Shown: positions 7,603-62,296, counted from the stretch's first letter. The stretch: 64,000 nucleotides of DNA from Escherichia coli (GCF_002854065.1 NZ_CP024147.1), one strand, 5' to 3'. Made by a program: numbers and translations. The notes: a model not told the origin generated them from the letters alone.

Positions 7603-8772
7603 ATGATGCGCCATTATGTGTGGTTGCTGGGAATGTTATCGCTGTTTTCTTTGACAACGCATGCCAGCGACTGGCAGGAAATTAAAAACGAAGCCAAAGG
7701 GGAAACCGTCTGGTTTAACGCCTGGGGCGGCGACACCGCGATTAATCGCTATCTCGACTGGGTTAGCGGTGAGATGAAAACGCATTACGATATAAACCTG
7801 AAGATTGTTCGTCTGGCGGATGCCGCAGACGCGGTGAAGCGCATTCAGACCGAAGCTGCTGCCGGACGTAAAACGGGCGGCTCGGTGGATCTGCTCTGGG
7901 TGAACGGCGAAAACTTCCGCACCTTAAAAGAGGCCAAGTTATTACAAACGGGCTGGGCGGAGACTCTGCCCAACTGGCGCTATGTCGACACACAGCTGCC
8001 GGTGCAGGAAGATTTTTCAGTGCCTACAGAAGGGGCTGAATCGCCCTGGGGGGGCGCACAACTGACATTTATCGCCCGCCGCGATGTTACGCCACAGCCA
8101 CCACAAACGCCGCAAGCCTTACTGGAGTTTGCTAAAGCCAATCCCGGCACGGTTACCTATCCGCGCCCACCGGACTTTACCGGCACGGCGTTTCTTGAAC
8201 AGTTGCTGATTATGCTGACGCCCGATCCCGCCGCATTAAAAGAAGCGCCGGACGATGCAACTTTCGCCCGTGTCACTGCTCCCTTGTGGCAATATCTTGA
8301 TGCGCTGCATCCGTATTTGTGGCGCGAAGGAAAGGATTTCCCGCCTTCGCCCGCGCGGATGGATGCTCTGCTGAAAGCCGGAACATTGCGCCTGTCGCTG
8401 ACCTTTAACCCCGCGCATGCGCAGCAAAAAATCGCCAGCGGCGATTTGCCTGCAAGCAGTTACAGTTTTGGCTTTCGTGAGGGGATGATTGGCAACGTGC
8501 ATTTCGTCACCATTCCTGCCAACGCGAATGCCAGTGCTGCGGCGAAGGTAGTTGCCAATTTCTTGCTCTCACCCGATGCGCAATTGCGTAAAGCAGATCC
8601 CGCTGTCTGGGGCGATCCTTCTGTTCTCGATCCGCAAAAACTGCCTGATGGGCAGCGCGAAACATTGCAATCAAGAATGCCGCAAGATCTGCCGCCGGTA
8701 CTGGCTGAACCGCACGCAGGTTGGGTAAATGCGCTGGAACAAGAATGGCTACACCGTTACGGTACGCATTAA
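7603..8772 (+). CDS. ynjB: ABC transporter periplasmic substrate-binding protein (389 aa)
   Basis: ORF track 7603..8772; AAGGAG RBS; N-terminal signal peptide MMRHYVWLLGMLSLFSLTTHA. Confidence 0.8.
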   Translation: MMRHYVWLLGMLSLFSLTTHASDWQEIKNEAKGETVWFNAWGGDTAINRYLDWVSGEMKTHYDINLKIVRLADAADAVKRIQTEAAAGRKTGGSVDLLWVNGENFRTLKEAKLLQTGWAETLPNWRYVDTQLPVQEDFSVPTEGAESPWGGAQLTFIARRDVTPQPPQTPQALLEFAKANPGTVTYPRPPDFTGTAFLEQLLIMLTPDPAALKEAPDDATFARVTAPLWQYLDALHPYLWREGKDFPPSPARMDALLKAGTLRLSLTFNPAHAQQKIASGDLPASSYSFGFREGMIGNVHFVTIPANANASAAAKVVANFLLSPDAQLRKADPAVWGDPSVLDPQKLPDGQRETLQSRMPQDLPPVLAEPHAGWVNALEQEWLHRYGTH

Positions 8773-10280
8773 TCTTTTTGCTGTGGGCGATGGTGGCGGT
8801 GATTTATGCACCGCTGATCCCGGCAGCTCTCACGCTGATATCGCCTGCTTTGTCGTTGACACACTGGCAGGCGTTATTTGCCGATCCACAGTTACCGCAG
8901 GCATTACTGGCAACGCTGGTGTCGACAACCATCGCGGCGGTCGGGGCGTTGTTGATTGCCCTGCTGGTGATTGTGGCGCTGTGGCCTGGGCCGAAATGGC
9001 AGCGTATGTGCACCCGTCTGCCGTGGCTGCTCGCCATTCCCCATGTGGCTTTTGCCACCAGCGCCCTTCTGCTCTTTGCTGACGGAGGGCTGCTTTATGA
9101 CTATTTCCCGTATTTCACTCCGCCAATGGACAAATTGGGTATTGGGCTGGGCTTCACGCTGGCGGTGAAAGAAAGCGCATTTCTGCTGTGGATCTTAGCA
9201 GCAGTATTGAGCGAAAAACGGCTGTTGCAGCAGGTCATTGTGCTGGATTCGCTGGGCTACAGCCGCTGGCAATGCCTGAACTGGCTGCTGTTGCCCTCTG
9301 TCGCGCCTGCGCTGGCAATGGCGATGCTGGCGATTGTCGCCTGGTCGCTGTCGGTCGTGGATGTGGCGATTATTCTTGGGCCAGGTAATCCACCGACGCT
9401 GGCAGTAATTAGCTGGCAGTGGTTAACTCAGGGCGACGCCGATCAACAAACGAAAGGCGCACTCGCCAGCCTGCTGCTGATGTTGTTACTCGCCGCCTAC
9501 GTTTTGCTAGGCTATCTGCTATGGTGTACCTGGCGGCGTACTATTCCCCGCGTAGATGGCGTTCGTAAGCCTGCCACGCCTTTATTGCCAGGCATTACGC
9601 TGGCGAGTTTTTTACCCTTGACCGGTGTGCTGTGTGTGGTTCTGCTGGCGATCCTCGCGGATCAGTCGACGATCAATAGTGAAGCGCTCATCAACAGCCT
9701 GACAATGGGGCTGGTGGCGACATTCATCGCTTTGCTCCTGTTACTGCTGTGGCTGGAATGGGGGCCACAGCGTCGCCAGTTGTGGCTATGGTTGCCCATT
9801 TTATTACCCGCTCTGCCACTGGTGGCGGGCCAGTACACGCTGGCGCTATGGCTGAACCTGGATAGGAGCTGGACGGCGGTGGTCTGGGGGCATCTGCTGT
9901 GGGTAATTCCGTGGATGCTGTTTATCCTGCAACCCGCCTGGCAGCGCATTGATTCACGGTTAATTTTGATTGCACAAACACTGGGCTGGTCGCGGGCCAA
10001 AATCTTCTTTTACGTGAAATGCCCACTCATGTTGCGCCCTACGCTGATTGCCTTCGCGGTGGGATTTTCAGTCAGTATTGCGCAGTATATGCCGACGCTG
10101 TGGCTGGGCGCGGGGCGTTTTCCGACGCTCACCACTGAGGCGGTGGCATTAAGCAGCGGCGGCAGCAACGGTATTCTCGCCGCCCAGGCTTTATGGCAAC
10201 TGCTATTACCGCTTATTATTTTTGCCCTGACCGCGTTAGTCGCAAAATGGGTAGGTTATGTCAGACAAGGACTCCGCTAA
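8745..10280 (+). CDS. ynjC: ABC transporter permease, two-domain (511 aa)
   Basis: ORF 8721..10280; start placed at MATPLRYALIFLL; very hydrophobic; overlaps ynjB 3' end by 28 nt. Confidence 0.75.
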   Translation: MATPLRYALIFLLWAMVAVIYAPLIPAALTLISPALSLTHWQALFADPQLPQALLATLVSTTIAAVGALLIALLVIVALWPGPKWQRMCTRLPWLLAIPHVAFATSALLLFADGGLLYDYFPYFTPPMDKLGIGLGFTLAVKESAFLLWILAAVLSEKRLLQQVIVLDSLGYSRWQCLNWLLLPSVAPALAMAMLAIVAWSLSVVDVAIILGPGNPPTLAVISWQWLTQGDADQQTKGALASLLLMLLLAAYVLLGYLLWCTWRRTIPRVDGVRKPATPLLPGITLASFLPLTGVLCVVLLAILADQSTINSEALINSLTMGLVATFIALLLLLLWLEWGPQRRQLWLWLPILLPALPLVAGQYTLALWLNLDRSWTAVVWGHLLWVIPWMLFILQPAWQRIDSRLILIAQTLGWSRAKIFFYVKCPLMLRPTLIAFAVGFSVSIAQYMPTLWLGAGRFPTLTTEAVALSSGGSNGILAAQALWQLLLPLIIFALTALVAKWVGYVRQGLR

Positions 10281-10933
10281 TGCTCTGCGTGAAAAATGTT
10301 TCGCTACGTTTACCAGAAAGTTGCTTGCTGACAAACGTTAACTTTACGGTGGATAAAGGTGACATTGTCACGTTAATGGGGCCGTCTGGCTGTGGAAAAT
10401 CCACTCTGTTTTCATGGATGATTGGTGCACTGGCTGGACAGTTTTCTTGTACAGGTGAGCTATGGCTCAATGAGCAACGGATTGACATGCTACCCACCGC
10501 ACAGCGTCAGATTGGCATTCTTTTTCAGGATGCACTGTTATTTGACCAGTTCAGTGTCGGGCAAAATTTACTGCTGGCGCTACCGGCGACACTTAAGGGG
10601 AATGCCCGACGTAATGCCGTGAATGATGCACTTGAGCGTTCAGGCCTTGACGGAGCTTTCCATCAGGATCCTGCCACTTTGTCTGGCGGTCAGCGAGCGC
10701 GCGTTGCTCTGCTTCGCGCCCTTCTCGCTCAGCCAAAAGCGTTGCTACTGGATGAGCCATTCAGCCGTCTTGATGTGGCTCTGCGTGATAATTTTCGCCA
10801 GTGGGTGTTCAGCGAAGTTCGCGAACTGGCGATCCCCGTCGTTCAGGTAACGCACGATCTCCAGGATGTTCCTGCTGATAGTTCTGTTCTGGATATGGCG
10901 CAGTGGTCAGAAAATTACAACAAACTGCAATAA
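10280..10933 (+). CDS. ynjD: ABC transporter ATP-binding protein (217 aa)
   Basis: Walker A GPSGCGKST, signature LSGGQRARV, Walker B LLLDEP; ATG overlaps ynjC TAA (TAATG). Confidence 0.8.
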   Translation: MLCVKNVSLRLPESCLLTNVNFTVDKGDIVTLMGPSGCGKSTLFSWMIGALAGQFSCTGELWLNEQRIDMLPTAQRQIGILFQDALLFDQFSVGQNLLLALPATLKGNARRNAVNDALERSGLDGAFHQDPATLSGGQRARVALLRALLAQPKALLLDEPFSRLDVALRDNFRQWVFSEVRELAIPVVQVTHDLQDVPADSSVLDMAQWSENYNKLQ

Positions 10934-10999
10934 CGCAAAGTTTTTCTCAATGCGTCAGTTCAGAATGGCGCACTCAAAACTACAATGTCGGGATTTTCG

Positions 11000-12307
11000 A
11001 TGAAACGTGTTTCTCAAATGACCGCGCTGGCAATGGCTTTAGGGCTGGCTTGCGCTTCTTCGTGGGCCGCTGAACTGGCGAAGCCTCTTACACTTGACCA
11101 GCTTCAACAACAAAATGGCAAAGCGATAGATACTCGCCCCAGCGCGTTTTATAACGGCTGGCCACAAACCTTAAATGGCCCTTCTGGTCATGAACCTGCC
11201 GCCTTAAACCTCTCTGCTAGCTGGCTTGACAAAATGAGCACCGAACAGCTCAACGCGTGGATCAAGCAACATAACCTGAGAGCCGATGCCCCGGTGGCGC
11301 TGTACGGTAATGGCAAAGATGTCGACGCCGTCAAAACGCGACTGCAAAAAGCAGGTTTTACGCATATCTCCATTCTGAGTGACGCGCTAAGCGAACCTTC
11401 CCGTCTGCAAAAACTGCCGCATTTTGAGCAGCTGGTTTATCCGCAATGGCTGCATGACCTGCAACAAGGTAAAGAGGTTACGGCGAAACCTGCCGGTGAC
11501 TGGAAAGTCATTGAAGCGGCCTGGGGCACTCCTAAGCTTTACCTTATCAGCCATATTCCCGGCGCTGACTACATCGATACCAACGAAGTGGAAAGCGAAC
11601 CGCTGTGGAACAAAGTTTCTGATGAACAACTAAAAGCGATGCTGGCAAAACACGGCATTCGCCATGACACCACGGTCATTCTGTACGGGCGTGACGTATA
11701 CGCTGCAGCGCGTGTGGCGCAGATTATGCTGTATGCAGGCGTGAAAGATGTGCGCCTGCTGGATGGCGGCTGGCAAACCTGGTCCGACGCGGGTCTGCCC
11801 GTTGAGCGCGGTACGCCACCGAAAGTGAAAGCGGAACCGGATTTCGGCGTGAAGATCCCGGCGCAACCGCAGTTGATGCTCGATATGGAACAGGCCCGTG
11901 GACTGCTGCATCGCCAGGATGCATCGCTGGTGAGCATTCGTTCGTGGCCAGAATTTATCGGTACGACCAGCGGTTACAGCTATATTAAACCAAAAGGTGA
12001 AATAGCCGGAGCACGTTGGGGACACGCTGGTAGCGACTCGACGCATATGGAAGATTTCCATAACCCGGATGGCACCATGCGTAGCGCCGATGATATTACC
12101 GCTATGTGGAAAGCATGGAATATCAAACCAGATCAGCAAGTTTCATTCTACTGCGGCACCGGCTGGCGCGCGTCCGAAACCTTTATGTACGCACGAGCAA
12201 TGGGCTGGAATAACGTCTCCGTTTACGACGGCGGCTGGTACGAATGGAGCAGCGATCCAAAAAATCCGGTAGCAACCGGTGAACGCGGCCCGGACAGCAG
12301 CAAATAA
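11000..12307 (+). CDS. ynjE: periplasmic sulfurtransferase with rhodanese domains (435 aa)
   Basis: ORF 10985..12307; signal peptide; rhodanese-type active-site Cys (FYCGTGWRAS). Confidence 0.8.
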   Translation: MKRVSQMTALAMALGLACASSWAAELAKPLTLDQLQQQNGKAIDTRPSAFYNGWPQTLNGPSGHEPAALNLSASWLDKMSTEQLNAWIKQHNLRADAPVALYGNGKDVDAVKTRLQKAGFTHISILSDALSEPSRLQKLPHFEQLVYPQWLHDLQQGKEVTAKPAGDWKVIEAAWGTPKLYLISHIPGADYIDTNEVESEPLWNKVSDEQLKAMLAKHGIRHDTTVILYGRDVYAAARVAQIMLYAGVKDVRLLDGGWQTWSDAGLPVERGTPPKVKAEPDFGVKIPAQPQLMLDMEQARGLLHRQDASLVSIRSWPEFIGTTSGYSYIKPKGEIAGARWGHAGSDSTHMEDFHNPDGTMRSADDITAMWKAWNIKPDQQVSFYCGTGWRASETFMYARAMGWNNVSVYDGGWYEWSSDPKNPVATGERGPDSSK

Positions 12308-20367: not shown

Positions 20368-22224
20368 ATGCGAACCCTTTGGCGATTTATTGCCGGATTT
20401 TTTAAATGGACGTGGCGTCTGCTGAATTTCGTCCGTGAAATGGTACTTAACCTGTTCTTTATTTTTCTCGTGCTGGTTGGTGTGGGGATCTGGATGCAGG
20501 TCAGTGGTGGTGATTCGAAAGAAACGGCCAGTCGTGGTGCACTGCTGCTGGACATTTCTGGTGTAATCGTCGATAAACCCGACAGTTCTCAGCGGTTTAG
20601 TAAATTAAGCCGCCAACTACTTGGTGCCAGTTCCGATCGTCTGCAGGAAAACTCACTGTTTGATATCGTCAACACCATTCGCCAGGCGAAGGACGACCGC
20701 AATATCACCGGTATCGTGATGGATCTGAAAAACTTCGCAGGCGGCGACCTGCCGTCTATGCAGTACATCGGCAAAGCCCTGAAAGAGTTTCGTGACAGCG
20801 GGAAACCGGTTTATGCCGTTGGCGAGAACTACAGCCAGGGGCAATATTATCTCGCCAGTTTCGCCAATAAAATTTGGCTGTCACCGCAAGGCGTGGTGGA
20901 TTTGCACGGTTTTGCTACCAACGGTCTGTACTACAAATCGTTGCTGGATAAGCTGAAAGTTTCCACCCATGTGTTCCGCGTGGGTACGTATAAATCTGCC
21001 GTTGAACCGTTTATTCGTGATGACATGTCACCGGCAGCCCGCGAAGCTGACAGCCGCTGGATTGGTGAGCTGTGGCAAAACTATCTGAATACTGTTGCCG
21101 CTAACCGGCAGATCCCTGCTCAGCAGGTATTCCCTGGCGCGCAAGGGTTGCTTGAGGGTTTAACCAAAACCGGTGGCGATACCGCGAAATATGCACTGGA
21201 AAACAAGCTGGTCGATGCACTGGCATCGAGTGCGGAAATCGAAAAAGCACTGACCAAAGAGTTCGGCTGGAGTAAGACTGATAAAAATTATCGCGCCATC
21301 AGTTATTACGATTACGCATTGAAAACGCCGGCAGATACCGGTGACAGCATCGGTGTCGTCTTCGCTAATGGCGCAATTATGGATGGCGAGGAAACTCAGG
21401 GGAATGTTGGCGGTGATACCACTGCGGCACAAATCCGCGACGCTCGCCTTGACCCGAAAGTGAAAGCGATTGTCCTGCGTGTTAATAGCCCAGGCGGCAG
21501 CGTTACCGCGTCTGAAGTGATTCGCGCTGAACTGGCAGCAGCCCGGGCAGCGGGTAAGCCTGTGGTTGTATCGATGGGCGGCATGGCGGCATCTGGTGGT
21601 TACTGGATTTCCACGCCAGCTAATTACATTGTGGCTAACCCCAGCACCCTGACCGGTTCTATTGGTATCTTCGGCGTGATCACCACCGTAGAAAATAGTC
21701 TGGATTCGATTGGTGTTCATACTGATGGTGTCTCAACTTCACCGCTGGCAGATGTTTCTATCACCAGGGCACTGCCGCCGGAAGCGCAGCAGATGATGCA
21801 GTTAAGCATTGAGAATGGCTATAAACGCTTTATTACGCTGGTTGCTGATGCGCGTCATTCGACGCCGGAGCAGATTGATAAAATCGCCCAGGGCCACGTC
21901 TGGACCGGTCAGGACGCAAAAGCTAACGGGCTGGTCGATAGTCTCGGGGATTTCGATGATGCGGTCGCCAAAGCAGCAGAGCTGGCAAAAGTGAAACAGT
22001 GGCATCTGGAATACTACGTTGATGAACCGACCTTCTTCGACAAAGTGATGGACAACATGTCTGGTTCTGTCCGGGCAATGTTGCCAGATGCGTTCCAGGC
22101 CATGTTACCTGCACCGCTTGCCTCGGTAGCCTCTACCGTTAAAAGTGAAAGTGACAAGCTGGCCGCGTTTAACGACCCACAAAACCGTTATGCGTTTTGC
22201 CTGACCTGCGCCAACGTGCGTTAA
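20368..22224 (+). CDS. sppA: signal peptide peptidase A / protease IV (618 aa)
   Basis: ORF 20224..22224; start at [21 protein letters not shown]; duplicated ClpP-like S49 domains. Confidence 0.9.
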
Positions 22225-22237
22225 ATCCTGCAAAAAT

Positions 22238-23050
22238 GTGGTCGATATGCTGTCGGCCACACTCCTGAATCGGACTGTCTTTCACTCCCTCTCTCCACTA
22301 CATTCCCTTGCTCATTTAGCATCTGATATGGAGTCATCAGTGAACAAGGCCCCCTCTTTAATTGCCGCTATCGTCCTCGGACTGGGGATTAGCGCCTGTG
22401 GTTATTTTGTTGGTGATGGTGTTAAACATTTAAAAACCAACAACCGTTATGTGAATGTGCGCGGGCTTTCTGAAAAAGAAGTTCGCGCAGATACGGCAGA
22501 ATTAACAATTGCGATTAACTTTAAGGGTAATGTTCCCGGCGAACTGTTCCCGAAACTGGAAGACGCGCAGAAAAAAATTGTTGCCGAACTCAATGCTCAG
22601 GGGATTAACGAGAAAGAGATAATCCTGGGCCAATGGACAAGCAAGCGAACTGATTCCTTCTATCTGAAAGATGATCCCACAATGCCACGCTATAACGCAG
22701 ACGGGTCAGTGACGATAAAAACCCATAATGTTGCTGCTGTCGAAAAAGTCGTCGCGAAATTAAACGAACTGCAAGTCGCTACGGATGGCGCTATCGCTGA
22801 GAGCAAAGTCGCCTATCGCTTTAATGGTATTGGCGCACTGCGCGCTGAGATGATTGCTGCCGCCACCAAAGATGCACGCAACGCCGCACTACAATTTGCA
22901 ACGGACTCAGGTAGCCAGGTGGGGTCAATTAGCGATGCCTCACAAGGCGTATTCCAGATCTTTGCCAGTGGCAGTGATGAAGATGATCCTACGGCGATTA
23001 ATAAAACGGTACGCGTAGTCACGACCGTAACCTATGCGTTGCAGGATTAA
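22238..23050 (+). CDS. putative lipoprotein with SIMPL/DUF541-like sequence pattern (270 aa from GTG; more likely 240 aa from ATG at 22328)
   Basis: Uninterrupted ORF with E. coli-like codon usage; internal start MESSVNKAPSLIAAIVLGLGISA|CG carries signal peptide plus lipobox; C-terminal AxxxAxxxA...G..G.I pattern resembles the SIMPL fold (YggE, BP26). No gene at this position in the K-12 order as I recall it. Confidence 0.55.
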   Translation: MVDMLSATLLNRTVFHSLSPLHSLAHLASDMESSVNKAPSLIAAIVLGLGISACGYFVGDGVKHLKTNNRYVNVRGLSEKEVRADTAELTIAINFKGNVPGELFPKLEDAQKKIVAELNAQGINEKEIILGQWTSKRTDSFYLKDDPTMPRYNADGSVTIKTHNVAAVEKVVAKLNELQVATDGAIAESKVAYRFNGIGALRAEMIAAATKDARNAALQFATDSGSQVGSISDASQGVFQIFASGSDEDDPTAINKTVRVVTTVTYALQD

Positions 23051-23058
23051 CCACTTTT

Positions 23059-23100
23059 CTCCGGCGGGACACTAATCCCTCCGTCCTGCCGGACTTTTCT
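23059..23100 (+). terminator. candidate intrinsic terminator after the extra ORF
   Basis: Imperfect inverted repeat TCCGGCGGGA...TCCTGCCGGA followed by CTTTTCTC. Confidence 0.4.
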
Positions 23101-23181
23101 CATATCCACAGAGTATCCAGGTGCGCTCGCTGCCCCTCACGTATATACTTTTGCTCTTTCGATATCATTCATATCAATATC

Positions 23182-24198
23182 ATGCAAAAGAAATCAATTT
23201 ACGTTGCCTACACGGGCGGGACCATCGGGATGCAGCGTTCCGAGCAGGGTTATATACCGGTGTCAGGTCATCTACAACGCCAACTGGCGCTGATGCCGGA
23301 ATTCCATCGCCCGGAGATGCCAGATTTCACCATTCATGAATATACGCCGCTGATGGATTCTTCAGATATGACGCCGGAAGACTGGCAGCATATTGCTGAA
23401 GATATTAAAGCGCACTATGACGACTATGATGGTTTTGTCATTCTGCACGGCACCGATACGATGGCATATACCGCCTCTGCGCTGTCGTTCATGCTCGAAA
23501 ATCTCGGTAAACCGGTCATTGTGACAGGGTCACAAATCCCGCTGGCTGAGTTACGCTCTGACGGACAAATTAATCTGCTGAATGCGTTGTACGTTGCGGC
23601 GAATTATCCGATCAACGAAGTAACGCTCTTTTTCAATAACCGATTGTATCGCGGCAACCGCACTACCAAAGCCCATGCCGATGGTTTTGATGCGTTTGCC
23701 TCTCCAAACCTTCCTCCGTTACTGGAAGCAGGTATCCATATTCGTCGTTTGAATACGCCACCAGCCCCGCACGGTGAAGGGGAATTGATCGTTCATCCAA
23801 TCACGCCACAACCAATTGGCGTAGTGACGATTTATCCGGGGATTTCTGCTGACGTCGTGCGCAATTTTCTGCGCCAACCGGTGAAAGCATTGATTCTGCG
23901 CTCATATGGCGTGGGTAATGCGCCACAAAACAAAGCCTTCCTGCAGGAATTACAAGAAGCCAGCGATCGCGGTATTGTGGTGGTCAACCTGACACAATGT
24001 ATGTCCGGTAAAGTGAATATGGGTGGTTATGCCACCGGTAACGCCCTCGCCCATGCTGGCGTTATTGGCGGTGCAGATATGACTGTAGAAGCCACGCTAA
24101 CCAAACTGCATTACCTGCTTAGCCAGGAACTGGATACTGAAACCATTCGCAAGGCCATGAGCCAAAACCTGCGCGGCGAACTGACGCCGGATGATTAA
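23182..24198 (+). CDS. ansA: L-asparaginase I, cytoplasmic (338 aa)
   Basis: MQKKSIYVAYTGGTIGMQRSEQGYIPVSG...; TGGTIG active-site motif. Confidence 0.9.
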   Translation: MQKKSIYVAYTGGTIGMQRSEQGYIPVSGHLQRQLALMPEFHRPEMPDFTIHEYTPLMDSSDMTPEDWQHIAEDIKAHYDDYDGFVILHGTDTMAYTASALSFMLENLGKPVIVTGSQIPLAELRSDGQINLLNALYVAANYPINEVTLFFNNRLYRGNRTTKAHADGFDAFASPNLPPLLEAGIHIRRLNTPPAPHGEGELIVHPITPQPIGVVTIYPGISADVVRNFLRQPVKALILRSYGVGNAPQNKAFLQELQEASDRGIVVVNLTQCMSGKVNMGGYATGNALAHAGVIGGADMTVEATLTKLHYLLSQELDTETIRKAMSQNLRGELTPDD

Positions 24199-55368: not shown

Positions 55369-55572
55369 TTCGTTCTTTGCAGTTAATAACCTGCGTCATT
55401 TCACCTTTTATTGTTTCCGTTTCGTGTTTTATGGCTTTCCGTATTCTTAATTGTTTAATTTATGTAACATGCAAATAATCAATTTGTTAAACACAACATA
55501 CAACTCATTACCCTGCAAATAATTACAACTGGCAAAAGCCAGAGACGGGCTTTTATGCCCAGGAGATGACTC

Positions 55573-57183
55573 ATGATGAGCAATGTTAAGAAAAAAGATG
55601 TGCCGCTGATAAGCATCAGCCTGGTGGCCATTCTTTTCATCGCAGCTGCATTAAGCCTTTTCCCACAACAATCGGCCGACGCGGCCAACGCAATATACAC
55701 TTTTGTTACGCGTACGTTAGGTTCCGCCGTACAGGTATTGGTTTTGCTGGCAATGGGACTGGTGATTTATTTAGCCACTAGTAAATACGGCAATATTCGT
55801 CTTGGCGAAGGAAAACCGGAATACAGCACGCTCTCCTGGCTGTTTATGTTTATTTGTGCCGGTTTAGGTTCTTCTACGCTTTATTGGGGGGTTGCTGAAT
55901 GGGCCTATTATTATCAAACGCCTGGATTAAATATCGCACCGCGTTCACAACAGGCACTCGAATTTAGCGTCCCTTACTCCTTCTTCCACTGGGGCATCAG
56001 CGCCTGGGCAACTTATACGCTGGCCTCATTAATCATGGCTTATCACTTTCATGTGCGGAAAAACAAAGGTCTGAGTCTTTCCGGCATTATTGCCGCGATT
56101 ACCGGCGTTCGCCCGCAAGGCCCATGGGGAAAACTGGTTGATTTGATGTTCCTGATCGCCACTGTCGGTGCACTGACTATTTCCCTTGTTGTCACCGCAG
56201 CAACCTTTACTCGTGGACTTTCCGCACTGACCGGTTTACCCGATAACTTCACCGTGCAGGCATTTGTGATCCTGCTTTCCGGCGGCATTTTTTGCCTAAG
56301 CTCATGGATTGGTATCAACAACGGTTTGCAACGTCTGAGCAAAATGGTTGGCTGGGGCGCGTTCCTGCTGCCATTACTGGTGCTGATTGTCGGTCCAACC
56401 GAATTTATTACCAACAGCATCATCAATGCCATCGGCCTGACCACGCAAAACTTCCTGCAAATGAGCTTATTCACCGATCCGCTTGGCGATGGTTCATTTA
56501 CCCGCAACTGGACCGTATTCTACTGGCTGTGGTGGATCTCATACACCCCTGGCGTAGCAATGTTTGTCACCCGCGTTTCCCGCGGTCGTAAGATTAAAGA
56601 AGTTATCTGGGGACTGATCCTCGGCAGCACCGTCGGTTGCTGGTTCTTCTTCGGCGTAATGGAAAGCTATGCCATTCATCAGTTTATCAATGGCGTAATC
56701 AACGTCCCACAGGTGCTGGAAACACTGGGCGGCGAAACAGCTGTACAGCAAGTTCTGATGTCGTTGCCAGCCGGTAAATTGTTCCTCGCCGCATACTTGG
56801 GCGTGATGATTATTTTCCTTGCCTCGCATATGGATGCAGTGGCCTACACCATGGCGGCGACCAGTACGCGTAATCTCCAGGAAGGTGACGATCCTGACCG
56901 TGGGCTGCGTCTTTTCTGGTGCGTGGTGATCACTCTGATCCCGCTTTCCATCTTGTTTACCGGTGCTTCGCTGGAAACGATGAAAACCACCGTCGTGCTC
57001 ACAGCCCTTCCCTTCCTCGTCATTTTACTGGTGAAAGTCGGCGGATTTATTCGCTGGCTGAAACAGGATTACGCCGACATTCCGGCTCATCAAGTTGAAC
57101 ATTATCTCCCGCAGACACCGGTTGAAGCCCTGGAAAAAACACCAGTGCTCCCTGCGGGAACCGTATTCAAAGGCGACAACTGA
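55573..57183 (+). CDS. yeaV: BCCT-family transporter (536 aa from ATG; a shorter internal TTG start is possible)
   Basis: ORF track 55573..57183 with AGGAG RBS before ATGATG; N-terminal 55 residues form a hydrophobic helix. Confidence 0.8.
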
Positions 57184-60565: not shown

Positions 60566-60591
60566 AAAAAAAACGCCGGATTAACCGGCGT
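60566..60591 (-). terminator. intrinsic terminator downstream of fadD
   Basis: Minus strand reads GACGCCGGTTAATCCGGCGTTTTTTTT. Confidence 0.6.
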
Positions 60592-60610
60592 CTGACGACT
60601 GACTTAACGC

Positions 60611-62296
60611 TCAGGCTTTATTGTCCACTTTGCCGCGCGCTTCGTCACGTAATTCTCGTCGCAAAATTTTTCCGACGTTAGATTTCGGTAACTCATCACG
60701 AAACTCCACCAGCTTCGGTACTTTGTAGCCCGTGAGCTGACGGCGGCAAAAGGTCACCAGTGACTCTTCGGTAAGCGATGGATCTTTTTTCACTACGAAG
60801 ATTTTCACCGCTTCACCACTGGAGCCGGAAGGTACGCCAACAGCCGCGACTTCCTGTACGCCAGGATGCTGCATGACGACATCTTCAATCTCGTTGGGAT
60901 AGACGTTAAAACCGGAAACCAGAATCATGTCTTTTTTACGATCGACAATGCGCAGGAATCCTTCTTCATCCATCACCGCGATGTCGCCAGTGTGTAACCA
61001 GCCATTTTTGATGATTTCATCGGTAGCATCCGGACGCTGCCAGTAACCCAGCATCACCTGCGGTCCTTTGACACAAAGCTCACCCGGTTGACCCGGTGGT
61101 ACTTCATTATCATCATCATCCACCAGTTTGGCTTCTGTTGACGGTACTGGTAGGCCGATACTGCCGCTGTGGTAATCAATATCGTACGGGTTAACACTTA
61201 CCAATGGCGCACATTCGGTTAAGCCATAACCTTCAAGCAGATATTGTCCGGTCAGTTTCACCCAACGCTCTGCCACCACTTGCTGCACTGGCATCCCACC
61301 GCCTGCGGAAAGATGCAGACTGGAGAAATCCAGCTGCTGGAAATCTTTATTGTTCAGCAACGCATTAAACAAGGTGTTAACGCCAGTGATAGCGGTAAAC
61401 GGATATTTCGCTAACTCTTTTACCAACCCTGGAATATCACGCGGGTTAGTGATAAGCAGGTTCTGCCCACCCAGTTCGATAAACAGCAGGCAGTTAATGG
61501 TCAGGGCAAAAATGTGATACAGCGGCAGTGCCGTTACTACCAGTTCTTTACCTGGATGCAGCAACGGCCCATAGGTGGCGTTGACCTGTTCCAGGTTCGC
61601 CAGCATATTGCGGTGAGTCAGCATCGCGCCTTTCGCCACACCTGTGGTGCCGCCGGTGTATTGCAGGAAGGCTAAATCTTCCGGCACCAGTTCGGGTTTG
61701 ACGTACTGCATCCGGTAGCCGTTATGCAGTGCGCTACGAAATGAAATGGCATCTGGCAGATGGTATTTCGGCACCAAACGCTTGATGTATTTAACAACGA
61801 AATTGACTACCGTGCCTTTTGCCGTAGATAGCTGATCGCCCATACGGGTCAGAATTACGTGCTGAACGGCGGTTTTATCAACCACTTTTTCCAGTGTGTG
61901 AGCAAAGTTAGACACGATAACAATCGCCGATGCGCCGCTATCGTTAAGCTGATGCTCAAGCTCACGCGGGGTATACAACGGGTTAACGTTTACGACGATC
62001 ATCCCGGCACGCAAAATGCCAAACAGCGCCACCGGATATTGCAATAAATTAGGCATCATCAACGCAACGCGATCGCCTTTCTTCAGCCCCAACCCTTGTT
62101 GCAAATAAGCGGCAAACGCGCGACTGCGTTCTTCCAGCTTGCGGAAGGTCATCACCTCCCCCATATTCACAAACGCAGGCTGATCAGCGTAGCGCGCGAC
62201 CGACTGCTCAAACATATCTACCAGAGATTGATAACGGTCAGGGTTGATCTCCGTCGGAACGTCCGCGGGATAACGGTTAAGCCAAACCTTCTTCAA
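60611..62296 (-). CDS. fadD: long-chain fatty acid-CoA ligase (561 aa), TTG start
   Basis: ORF 60611..62362; start at TTG ([17 protein letters not shown]) preceded by GAGGTGAAG RBS; AMP-binding motifs. Confidence 0.9.

Follow-up and report, generated by a model that had tools for sequence, protein, structure and literature searches.

An ancestral SIMPL/DUF541 gene between sppA and ansA of Escherichia coli, apparently lost from most strains by a single old deletion

Introduction

BP26 (Omp28) of Brucella is the founding bacterial SIMPL/DUF541 protein. It carries a cleaved signal peptide, has no conserved anchor helix and forms a multimeric barrel. Compared with the protein studied here, which is encoded between sppA and ansA in E. 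coli, BP26 (PDB 4HVZ) belongs to the same Pfam family, shows the same two-lobed alpha/beta fold and is extracytoplasmic, but the two sequences are 18% identical and their structures superimpose with a TM score of only ~0.5 and an rmsd of 7.9 Å. In vitro, the immunodominant antigen BP26 binds collagen, vitronectin and fibronectin; where it is localised is debated (PMC7697752). Nothing suggests that the E. coli protein binds matrix components in the same manner.

The closest solved relatives are Campylobacter jejuni proteins, represented by 7C50/7C51 and the near-identical full-length entry 10AM ('Periplasmic protein', 231 aa, 9 chains). Similarity to 10AM/7C50 extends over the full length, with 7C50 as the best structural match (32% identity), and the C. 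jejuni (231 aa) and E. coli (236 aa) proteins both consist of a short N-terminus, a hydrophobic, glycine-containing helix and the SIMPL domain. However, sequence identity to the C. jejuni protein is only ~30%, and its N-terminal segment has no cysteine, whereas the E. coli protein displays a formal lipobox.

E. coli possesses another SIMPL-domain protein, YggE (NCBIfam NF008299, 'oxidative stress defense protein'), which is ~240 aa long and periplasmic. Its gene, yggE, is a core gene located elsewhere on the chromosome, whereas the gene between sppA and ansA is accessory and its product probably membrane-tethered. At the level of genome organisation, the locus recalls the O-islands, reportedly described by Perna et al. 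in 2001 as small segments that are present or absent when O157:H7 EDL933 and K-12 are compared. Like these, it is a segment of ~0.8 kb that O157:H7 possesses and MG1655 lacks, the backbone being otherwise collinear; unlike these, the gene is neither O157-specific nor an acquired island but is ancestral to the genus and was lost by deletion.

Full-text literature searches returned no paper or experiment on the E. coli gene or the C. jejuni SIMPL structures. Matches to cjSLP were rejected as a journal abbreviation, and matches to 'DUF541' in a Rickettsia paper because they were really DUF5410 and DUF5460. In a preprint on Bacteroides LolB, the only mention is of BT_1425, a DUF541 member given as 'likely not a lipoprotein'. 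Already known are the annotation of the gene in hundreds of RefSeq genomes, its Pfam family and the solved structures of homologues with ~30% identity; existing names in RefSeq and UniRef are 'SIMPL domain-containing protein' and 'DUF541 domain-containing protein', with the O157 allele listed as 'Lipoprotein' in UniRef. The present analysis adds the polarity of the deletion and the junction that K-12 has in common with CFT073, separates the protein from YggE and calls the 'lipoprotein' label into question. Overall, we consider it highly probable that the locus comprises a single-copy, chromosomal accessory gene for a 236-residue SIMPL envelope protein, which is ancestral, under purifying selection and missing from other strains through one deletion.

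Results

Organisation of the locus and choice of the start codon

The window, a stretch of 64,000 nucleotides of E. coli DNA (NZ_CP024147.1), contains a gap of 957 nt between the sppA stop codon (22222-22224) and the ansA start codon (ATG 23182), in agreement with the size given in a preliminary description of the sequence. The longest ORF in this gap, located on the plus strand at 22238..23050, spans 270 codons when counted from its first GTG. The SIMPL gene itself is intact and extends from GTG 22340 to the stop codon at 23050 (236 aa). The preliminary description had therefore been right to propose a complete ORF, but its estimate of 240-270 codons was slightly long, and the extent it assigned to the gene (22238-23100) included the terminator at its end, with coding sequence stopping at 23050.

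GTG 22340 appears to be the best start on comparative grounds. It is the start chosen by PGAP in strain 100416, whose sequence is 100% identical over the region, and it is preceded by GGAG (22330..22333), located 6 nt 5' of the GTG. The ribosome-binding site (AAGGAG or AAGGAA) and the start codon are kept in E. albertii, E. fergusonii, Escherichia sp. E1V33, Escherichia sp. MOD1-EC7003 and the enterobacterial Logan contig L093. By contrast, the in-frame ATG at 22328 reads AAG in E. albertii, E. fergusonii, the two further Escherichia sp. and L093, and the stretch 5' of GTG 22340 contains indels that are not multiples of three. The long start at GTG 22238 was rejected because the extension overlaps the hairpin behind sppA and is not conserved as coding sequence. 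All features are listed in Table 1.

Table 1. Features of the sppA-ansA region, with positions counted from the first nucleotide of the window.
Feature	Position	Strand	Evidence and remarks
sppA (signal peptide peptidase, 618 aa)	20368..22224	+	ORF; annotation in identical and related genomes; upstream neighbour
Hairpin directly after sppA (11-bp stem, 3-nt loop)	22237..22261	+	RNA fold, -17 kcal/mol
Allele-specific block relative to K-12	22262..23095	.	megablast against 74 kb of K-12 and alignments
Shine-Dalgarno sequence GGAG	22330..22333	+	Sequence; conservation across Escherichia species
SIMPL/DUF541 CDS (236 aa, GTG start, TAA stop)	22340..23050	+	PGAP, Pfam, dN/dS
N-terminal hydrophobic segment (residues 4-24)	22349..22411	+	Kyte-Doolittle, alignment, AlphaFold2 helix
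Formal lipobox ISAC	22388-22399	+	Within the N-terminal hydrophobic segment; Cys20 at 22397-22399
SIMPL domain PF04402	22451..23035	+	hmmscan; fold match to 7C50 and 4HVZ
Terminator-like element (11-bp stem, 12-nt loop, then CUUUUCUC)	23060..23101	+	RNA fold
ansA (asparaginase I)	23182..24198	+	ORF and annotation; downstream neighbour

Transcription signals

The gene was proposed to have a terminator-like hairpin of its own, and one was indeed found at 23060-23093 (-21.2 kcal/mol, z = -5.6, with none of 200 shuffled sequences folding as well), directly followed by CUUUUCUC. A simple terminator scan missed this element because it allows only loops of 3-8 nt. The hairpin behind sppA (22237-22261) is followed in the window allele by ACUCCUGAA, without a U-run, whereas its homologues in K-12 and E. 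fergusonii are followed by a T-run (U-run in the transcript) and constitute a proper sppA terminator. No sigma-70 consensus promoter was detected by a consensus scan of positions 22000-23300. As the window allele shows neither a U-run behind this hairpin nor a consensus promoter, we tentatively favour read-through from sppA, and transcription may then end at the hairpin at 23060-23101. In E. fergusonii and contig L093, sppA has a proper terminator, so that the gene can have a promoter of its own.

Family and fold of the encoded protein

The assignment to the SIMPL/DUF541 family, suggested earlier from sequence patterns, was borne out by a match to PF04402 that covers the entire model (positions 1-205 of 205) with an E value of 7.7e-18 and 65.9 bits (hmmscan). 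The same domain was present in all 120 homologues among the matches listed. A single-sequence search of the PDB (phmmer) retrieved 10am_A (2.9e-27, residues 9-236) and 7c50_A (1.1e-25), and a search with a family profile built from 102 homologues gave the same two entries (10am_A, 1e-65 over residues 7-236; 7c50_A, 2e-63) as well as BP26 (4hvz, E value 1.5e-4). An AlphaFold2 model of the 236-aa protein, based on the alignment of the 102 homologues, reached a mean pLDDT of 88.4. In Foldseek it matched 7C50 ('Simpl-like protein', C. jejuni) with an E value of 3.3e-17 and a TM score of 0.81 on the target, and BP26 (4HVZ) with an E value of 1.8e-12, the probability being 1.00 in both cases, so that structure prediction also upheld the proposed fold. 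Searches with PADLOC and PHROG for a defence or phage origin of the gene returned no match.

Of the details given for the C-terminal half, the alanine-rich helix was recovered in the model (residues 162-190). The Gly-x-x-Gly-x-Ile pattern has to be corrected, as the conserved glycine motif actually reads G191-x3-G195-x-I197. Within the family, the protein belongs to the putatively membrane-anchored subfamily of the C. jejuni 7C50/10AM type.

Membrane anchor or lipoprotein

The protein begins with MNKAPSLIAAIVLGLGISA, followed, at the position of a putative signal peptidase II cut, by CGYFVGDG. The preliminary description had taken this segment for a signal peptide with a lipobox. The sequence MNK-APSLIAAIVLGLG-ISA-C20 does satisfy a PROSITE-type lipobox rule ([LVI][ASTVI][GAS]C, with the cysteine at position 15-35, a positive n-region and an uncharged h-region), K3 lying in the n-region and the h-region being free of charges; the family, however, tells against the lipoprotein assignment. 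Only 4 of the 102 homologues, all of them Escherichia-like sequences, carry a cysteine at this column, the others having A, G, M, S or L, and the rule as a whole is likewise matched by only 4 of 102.

What the family has conserved is a hydrophobic helix. G16, G21 and G25 occur in 99, 101 and 93 of the 102 sequences, respectively, and residues 22-24 follow the pattern [YWF]-F-[VI]. The uncharged run has a median length of 22 residues across the 102 homologues, with a Kyte-Doolittle maximum of 2.12 over 19 residues, and residues ~4-24 contain the helix motif G-x4-G-x3-G. In the AlphaFold2 model, residues 4-34 form a single uninterrupted helix. We therefore favour, with some reserve, the interpretation that the N-terminal segment is a signal-anchor helix, conserved across the family and bearing a packing motif of small residues.

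The main competitor, to which we assign a real but smaller chance, is a true lipoprotein, in which Lgt and LspA process the sequence between ISA and C20, leaving an acylated Cys20 as the mature N-terminus; with glycine at position +2, Lol would deliver it to the inner leaflet of the outer membrane. This proposal draws on the formally intact lipobox with its cysteine at position 20, on the retention of the cysteine in E. coli, E. albertii, E. fergusonii and the homologue P0007, and on the UniRef name of the O157 allele. It is opposed by the rarity of both the cysteine and the lipobox among the homologues and by the corresponding segment of E. fergusonii (ITVC), whose valine at position -1 lies outside [GAS]. 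Moreover, the residues behind the cysteine (G21-[YWF]-F-[VI]-G25) are among the most conserved of the family and lie inside the 22-residue uncharged stretch, the continuous helix of residues 4-34 fits a transmembrane anchor rather than a flexible lipoprotein tether, and the closest solved homologue lacks a cysteine in this part. A membrane-anchor helix being what characterises the family, the automatic annotation as a 'lipoprotein' is open to doubt.

Relationship to YggE

The resemblance to YggE and BP26 pointed out previously is valid at the level of the family and does not extend to orthology with YggE. Against the YggE model NF008299 the protein scored 18.3 bits (E value 0.0012), compared with a curated equivalog cutoff of 249 bits, which makes it a distant paralogue of YggE rather than a second copy. 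The protein belongs to the SIMPL family without being orthologous to YggE.

A functional duplicate of YggE that does the same job, and is hence redundant and easily lost, nevertheless deserves consideration. Both proteins fall into Pfam SIMPL, a weak match to NF008299 exists, and the loss of the gene from 83% of the genomes demonstrates that it is dispensable. We regard this explanation as improbable in view of the score far below the equivalog cutoff and the N-terminal membrane helix conserved in the subfamily, YggE itself being soluble in the periplasm after removal of its signal peptide. In addition, the closest solved relatives are the C. jejuni proteins and not YggE, whose function is itself based on limited evidence.

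Distribution among E. coli genomes

In a megablast comparison, the collinearity between the window and 74 kb of K-12 was interrupted twice, once at 22262-23095. Opposite this block, K-12 has 46 nt that can be aligned only poorly, the net difference amounting to 791 nt. The sppA-ansA spacer of K-12 MG1655 is 166 nt long and contains no gene; the same ORF was looked for at this position and was absent, in line with the earlier view that the gene is extra relative to this strain.

Among 5426 complete E. coli genomes, 943 (17%) contained the gene, always as one chromosomal copy between sppA and ansA that bears the annotation 'SIMPL domain-containing protein', and both flanking spacers were present in the same 943 carriers. 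The K-12-type empty junction, scored at a coverage of at least 80% of a 131-nt probe, was found in 4481 genomes (~83%), and the variants examined differed only by SNPs or by length changes of 3-13 nt. No partial remnants of the gene were detected among the 5426 genomes. A third allele was considered for 298 genomes left unassigned by megablast and was rejected, because blastn with a word size of 11 placed the empty junction in them, with more SNPs or a spacer shorter by 13 nt. The locus is thus variable between strains, as had been suspected, with one common empty junction on the other side.

The exact protein of the window was encoded on 782 public contigs. Among the carriers are O157:H7, O55:H7 and O145:H28, with 99.1% identity to the window, and O25b:H4-ST131, with 98.0%. 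CFT073, which belongs to phylogroup B2, lacks the gene; its empty junction is identical to that of K-12 at 213 of 219 nt, yet over the sppA and ansA flanks it shares 99.4-99.5% identity with the carrier ST131. A junction like that of K-12 combined with flanks like those of ST131 points to one deletion allele on different phylogroup backgrounds. The deletion is either of sufficient age or has undergone sufficient recombination to be present in K-12 as well as in CFT073.

Polarity of the insertion/deletion difference

The preliminary description had left open whether the locus represents an insertion or a deletion. The indel itself was confirmed, and its polarity is that of a deletion in most E. 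coli rather than an insertion in the strain analysed here. The same slot, sppA/gene/ansA, is occupied by a gene of 236 codons in Escherichia sp. MOD1-EC7003, Escherichia sp. E1V33, E. albertii and E. fergusonii, whose products are 97%, 94%, 87% and 70% identical, respectively, to the protein of the window. E. marmotae proteins fall into the same 90% cluster as the window protein, and contig L093 carries a 68% identical copy between sppA and ansA (90% and 99% amino-acid identity). Alignment of the empty alleles revealed that they retain the sppA hairpin and a degenerate downstream spacer. The occupied slot across Escherichia and these retained parts identify the K-12 state as a loss. From these comparisons, the gene is ancestral to Escherichia, and the polymorphism reflects a single old deletion of ~790 nt and not an insertion.

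Beyond Escherichia-like sequences, identity dropped to 50-59% in metagenome proteins. The first named matches outside Escherichia came from metagenome-assembled genomes (MAGs) of Phycisphaerales (53%) and Rickettsiales (46%), and others from Micavibrio, Caedibacter, many gut Bacteroidales, Synergistetes and Thalassospira. The protein search returned no named protein of Salmonella, Citrobacter or Klebsiella among the homologues, and these missing named close matches imply that the gene is probably absent from Salmonella, Citrobacter and similar genera. As the nearest relatives other than Escherichia-like ones are non-enterobacterial, the distribution suggests that the stem of Escherichia may have gained the gene horizontally in an older event.

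By the signs of integrases, tRNAs, repeats and composition, the locus is not a genomic island or mobile element. There was no tRNA at the locus and no other ORF in the block 22262..23095, whose GC content is 0.45-0.52 compared with 0.48-0.56 in the flanks. Of two repeats considered as signs of mobility, a perfect inverted one of 10 nt enclosed the gene and a direct one of 9 nt the terminator hairpin; both were rejected as being at the level expected by chance (~0.5 and ~2 per kb-squared, respectively).

That some E. coli lineages acquired the gene recently by horizontal insertion, the K-12 state being ancestral, is very unlikely and effectively refuted for E. coli. Such an event would be compatible with the restriction of the gene to Escherichia-like sequences within Enterobacterales, with next relatives (46-53% identity) in Phycisphaerales and Rickettsiales MAGs, which make an earlier horizontal entry probable, and with a GC content slightly below that of the flanks. 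Against it stand the shared slot in E. albertii, E. fergusonii, two other Escherichia sp. and an enterobacterial contig, an amino-acid identity (87%, 70% and 68%) that declines with the distance between species, the lack of an integrase, transposase, tRNA or target duplication, and the 4481 empty sites, which represent one junction with the sppA hairpin and the degenerate downstream spacer.

Selection on the gene

Within E. coli and out to E. fergusonii, every pairwise comparison yielded a dN/dS of 0.04-0.12, indicating that the gene is under purifying selection. From E. coli to E. fergusonii, the length is constant at 236 aa and the ribosome-binding site is kept. The protein is 70% identical to its E. 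fergusonii counterpart, compared with 86% for SppA and 94% for AnsA, and thus evolves faster than the products of the two neighbouring genes. A decaying relic that is non-functional in the strains keeping it can practically be dismissed, since the loss of the gene from most E. coli, a few truncated variants (e.g. P0004 at 220 aa, and several partial entries) and one strain with an IS200 between sppA and the SIMPL gene are outweighed by the low dN/dS throughout, within E. coli included, an intact CDS annotated in 60 of 60 sampled records, the constant 236-aa length and the conserved Shine-Dalgarno sequence and start codon.

Discussion

Gene neighbourhood offers little guidance on function. When the ORFs of ~80 loci from other taxa were clustered, no conserved neighbour genes were common across taxa, and sppA and ansA occurred as neighbours only in Escherichia-like loci. 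Without a common neighbour, the genomic context gives no basis for proposing an operon-related function, and only in this lineage is the gene linked to sppA.

The architecture of the protein suggests that the N-terminal helix (residues ~4-24) inserts into the inner membrane, with the SIMPL domain (~36-236) facing the periplasm. As the charge balance is about equal on both sides of the helix, this orientation is based on analogy with the family and on the PDB name 'Periplasmic protein'. Across the family, the helix resembles a signal anchor that stays uncleaved. A cysteine has given rise to a formal lipobox in E. coli and E. albertii, so that lipid anchoring after cleavage by LspA would be the alternative. 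By extrapolation from SIMPL relatives, the domain probably self-assembles into a ring or oligomer. The protein would then most likely be a dispensable structural or stress-related component of the envelope and not an enzyme. The 9 chains of 10AM could be mere crystal or asymmetric-unit copies.

As a consequence of the single old deletion, the laboratory model strain is without an envelope protein that ~17% of sequenced E. coli have kept. The retaining lineages include the major pathogens O157:H7, O145:H28 and ST131, and the naturally isogenic-like plus and minus lineages could be used to search for SIMPL/DUF541 phenotypes.

A more far-reaching reading, which we put forward tentatively and consider rather unlikely in its entirety, joins three elements: a widespread class of ring-forming SIMPL proteins anchored in the inner membrane, of which this would be the Escherichia member, an ancestral horizontal gain and a polymorphism kept by a niche-dependent envelope phenotype. 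If it were true, the natural knock-outs would make SIMPL function directly testable in E. coli. The ring might perhaps be nonameric, as hinted by the number of chains in 10AM. The polymorphism extends across phylogroups, with ST131, O157 and O145 keeping the gene and K-12 and CFT073 being without it.

Sequences flanking the SIMPL gene

The hairpin located 3' of sppA was retained in all alleles, as seen when the window was compared with the corresponding loci of K-12 (L001) and Escherichia fergusonii (L084). The T-run behind this hairpin was present only in E. fergusonii and in the empty E. coli allele, that is, the K-12-type sppA-ansA junction devoid of the SIMPL gene. It is absent in the gene-carrying E. 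coli allele, so that sppA appears to be without an intrinsic terminator of its own in this arrangement. A homolog of the SIMPL gene (68% identity), situated likewise between sppA and ansA, was found in an enterobacterium on a Logan contig of 2393 nt (SRR14739086), with flanking genes whose products are 90% (sppA) and 99% (ansA) identical at the amino-acid level; here, sppA is followed by a clean terminator, and the SIMPL gene starts with ATG.

Downstream of the gene, the spacer of ~90 nt reaching from the SIMPL stop codon to the ansA promoter region (window 23051-23140) could only be aligned weakly between the filled and empty (K-12) alleles, with an identity of ~50-65%; the flanking genes of the locus are 98-99% identical. 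Comparable divergence was observed for the same stretch in Escherichia albertii. Judged from these alignments, either the spacer is evolving very fast or the filled and empty alleles are very old. Two short perfect repeats, one flanking the SIMPL gene and one its terminator hairpin, are listed in the table. Both occur at approximately the frequency expected by chance for 1 kb of sequence.

Features in and around the SIMPL gene and elsewhere in the window
Feature	Position	Strand	Remark
sppA hairpin	22237-22261		3' of sppA
10-nt inverted repeat, AATCCTGCAA / TTGCAGGATT	22224-22233 / 23039-23048		perfect; flanks SIMPL gene
9-nt direct repeat, ACTTTTCTC	23053-23061 / 23093-23101		perfect; flanks terminator hairpin
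yeaV ORF	55573-57183	+	536 aa in the window
sRNA sroD	60567-60652	-	Rfam match, 115 bits (gathering score 50)

Other differences from K-12 and RNA genes

Over the 64 kb compared, the sole difference from K-12 besides the sppA-ansA block was a 224-nt segment (window 55477-55700) that is missing in K-12 and holds the 5' end of yeaV together with its upstream region. The K-12 copy of yeaV carries the PGAP flag 'missing N-terminus'. The only Rfam family detected across the window was sroD, and no tRNA genes were found in its 64 kb.

Variation in other strains

In E. coli E400634 (NZ_CM128600.1, locus 642-1100), an IS200/IS605 tnpA gene interrupts the spacer that separates sppA from the SIMPL gene and contains the sppA hairpin, leaving the SIMPL coding sequence intact. 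In E. coli EH2252 (NZ_AP027176.1), the sppA-ansA probe matched two separate places with a reduced coverage of 36%, a split that suggests a rearrangement or insertion at this locus. A further small variable locus near the region of the window is gdhA-topB: CFT073 (NC_004431.1, locus 7615-12125) carries three genes at this position, whose products are a J-domain protein, a member of the Hsp70 family and a hypothetical protein, whereas K-12 has ynjI.
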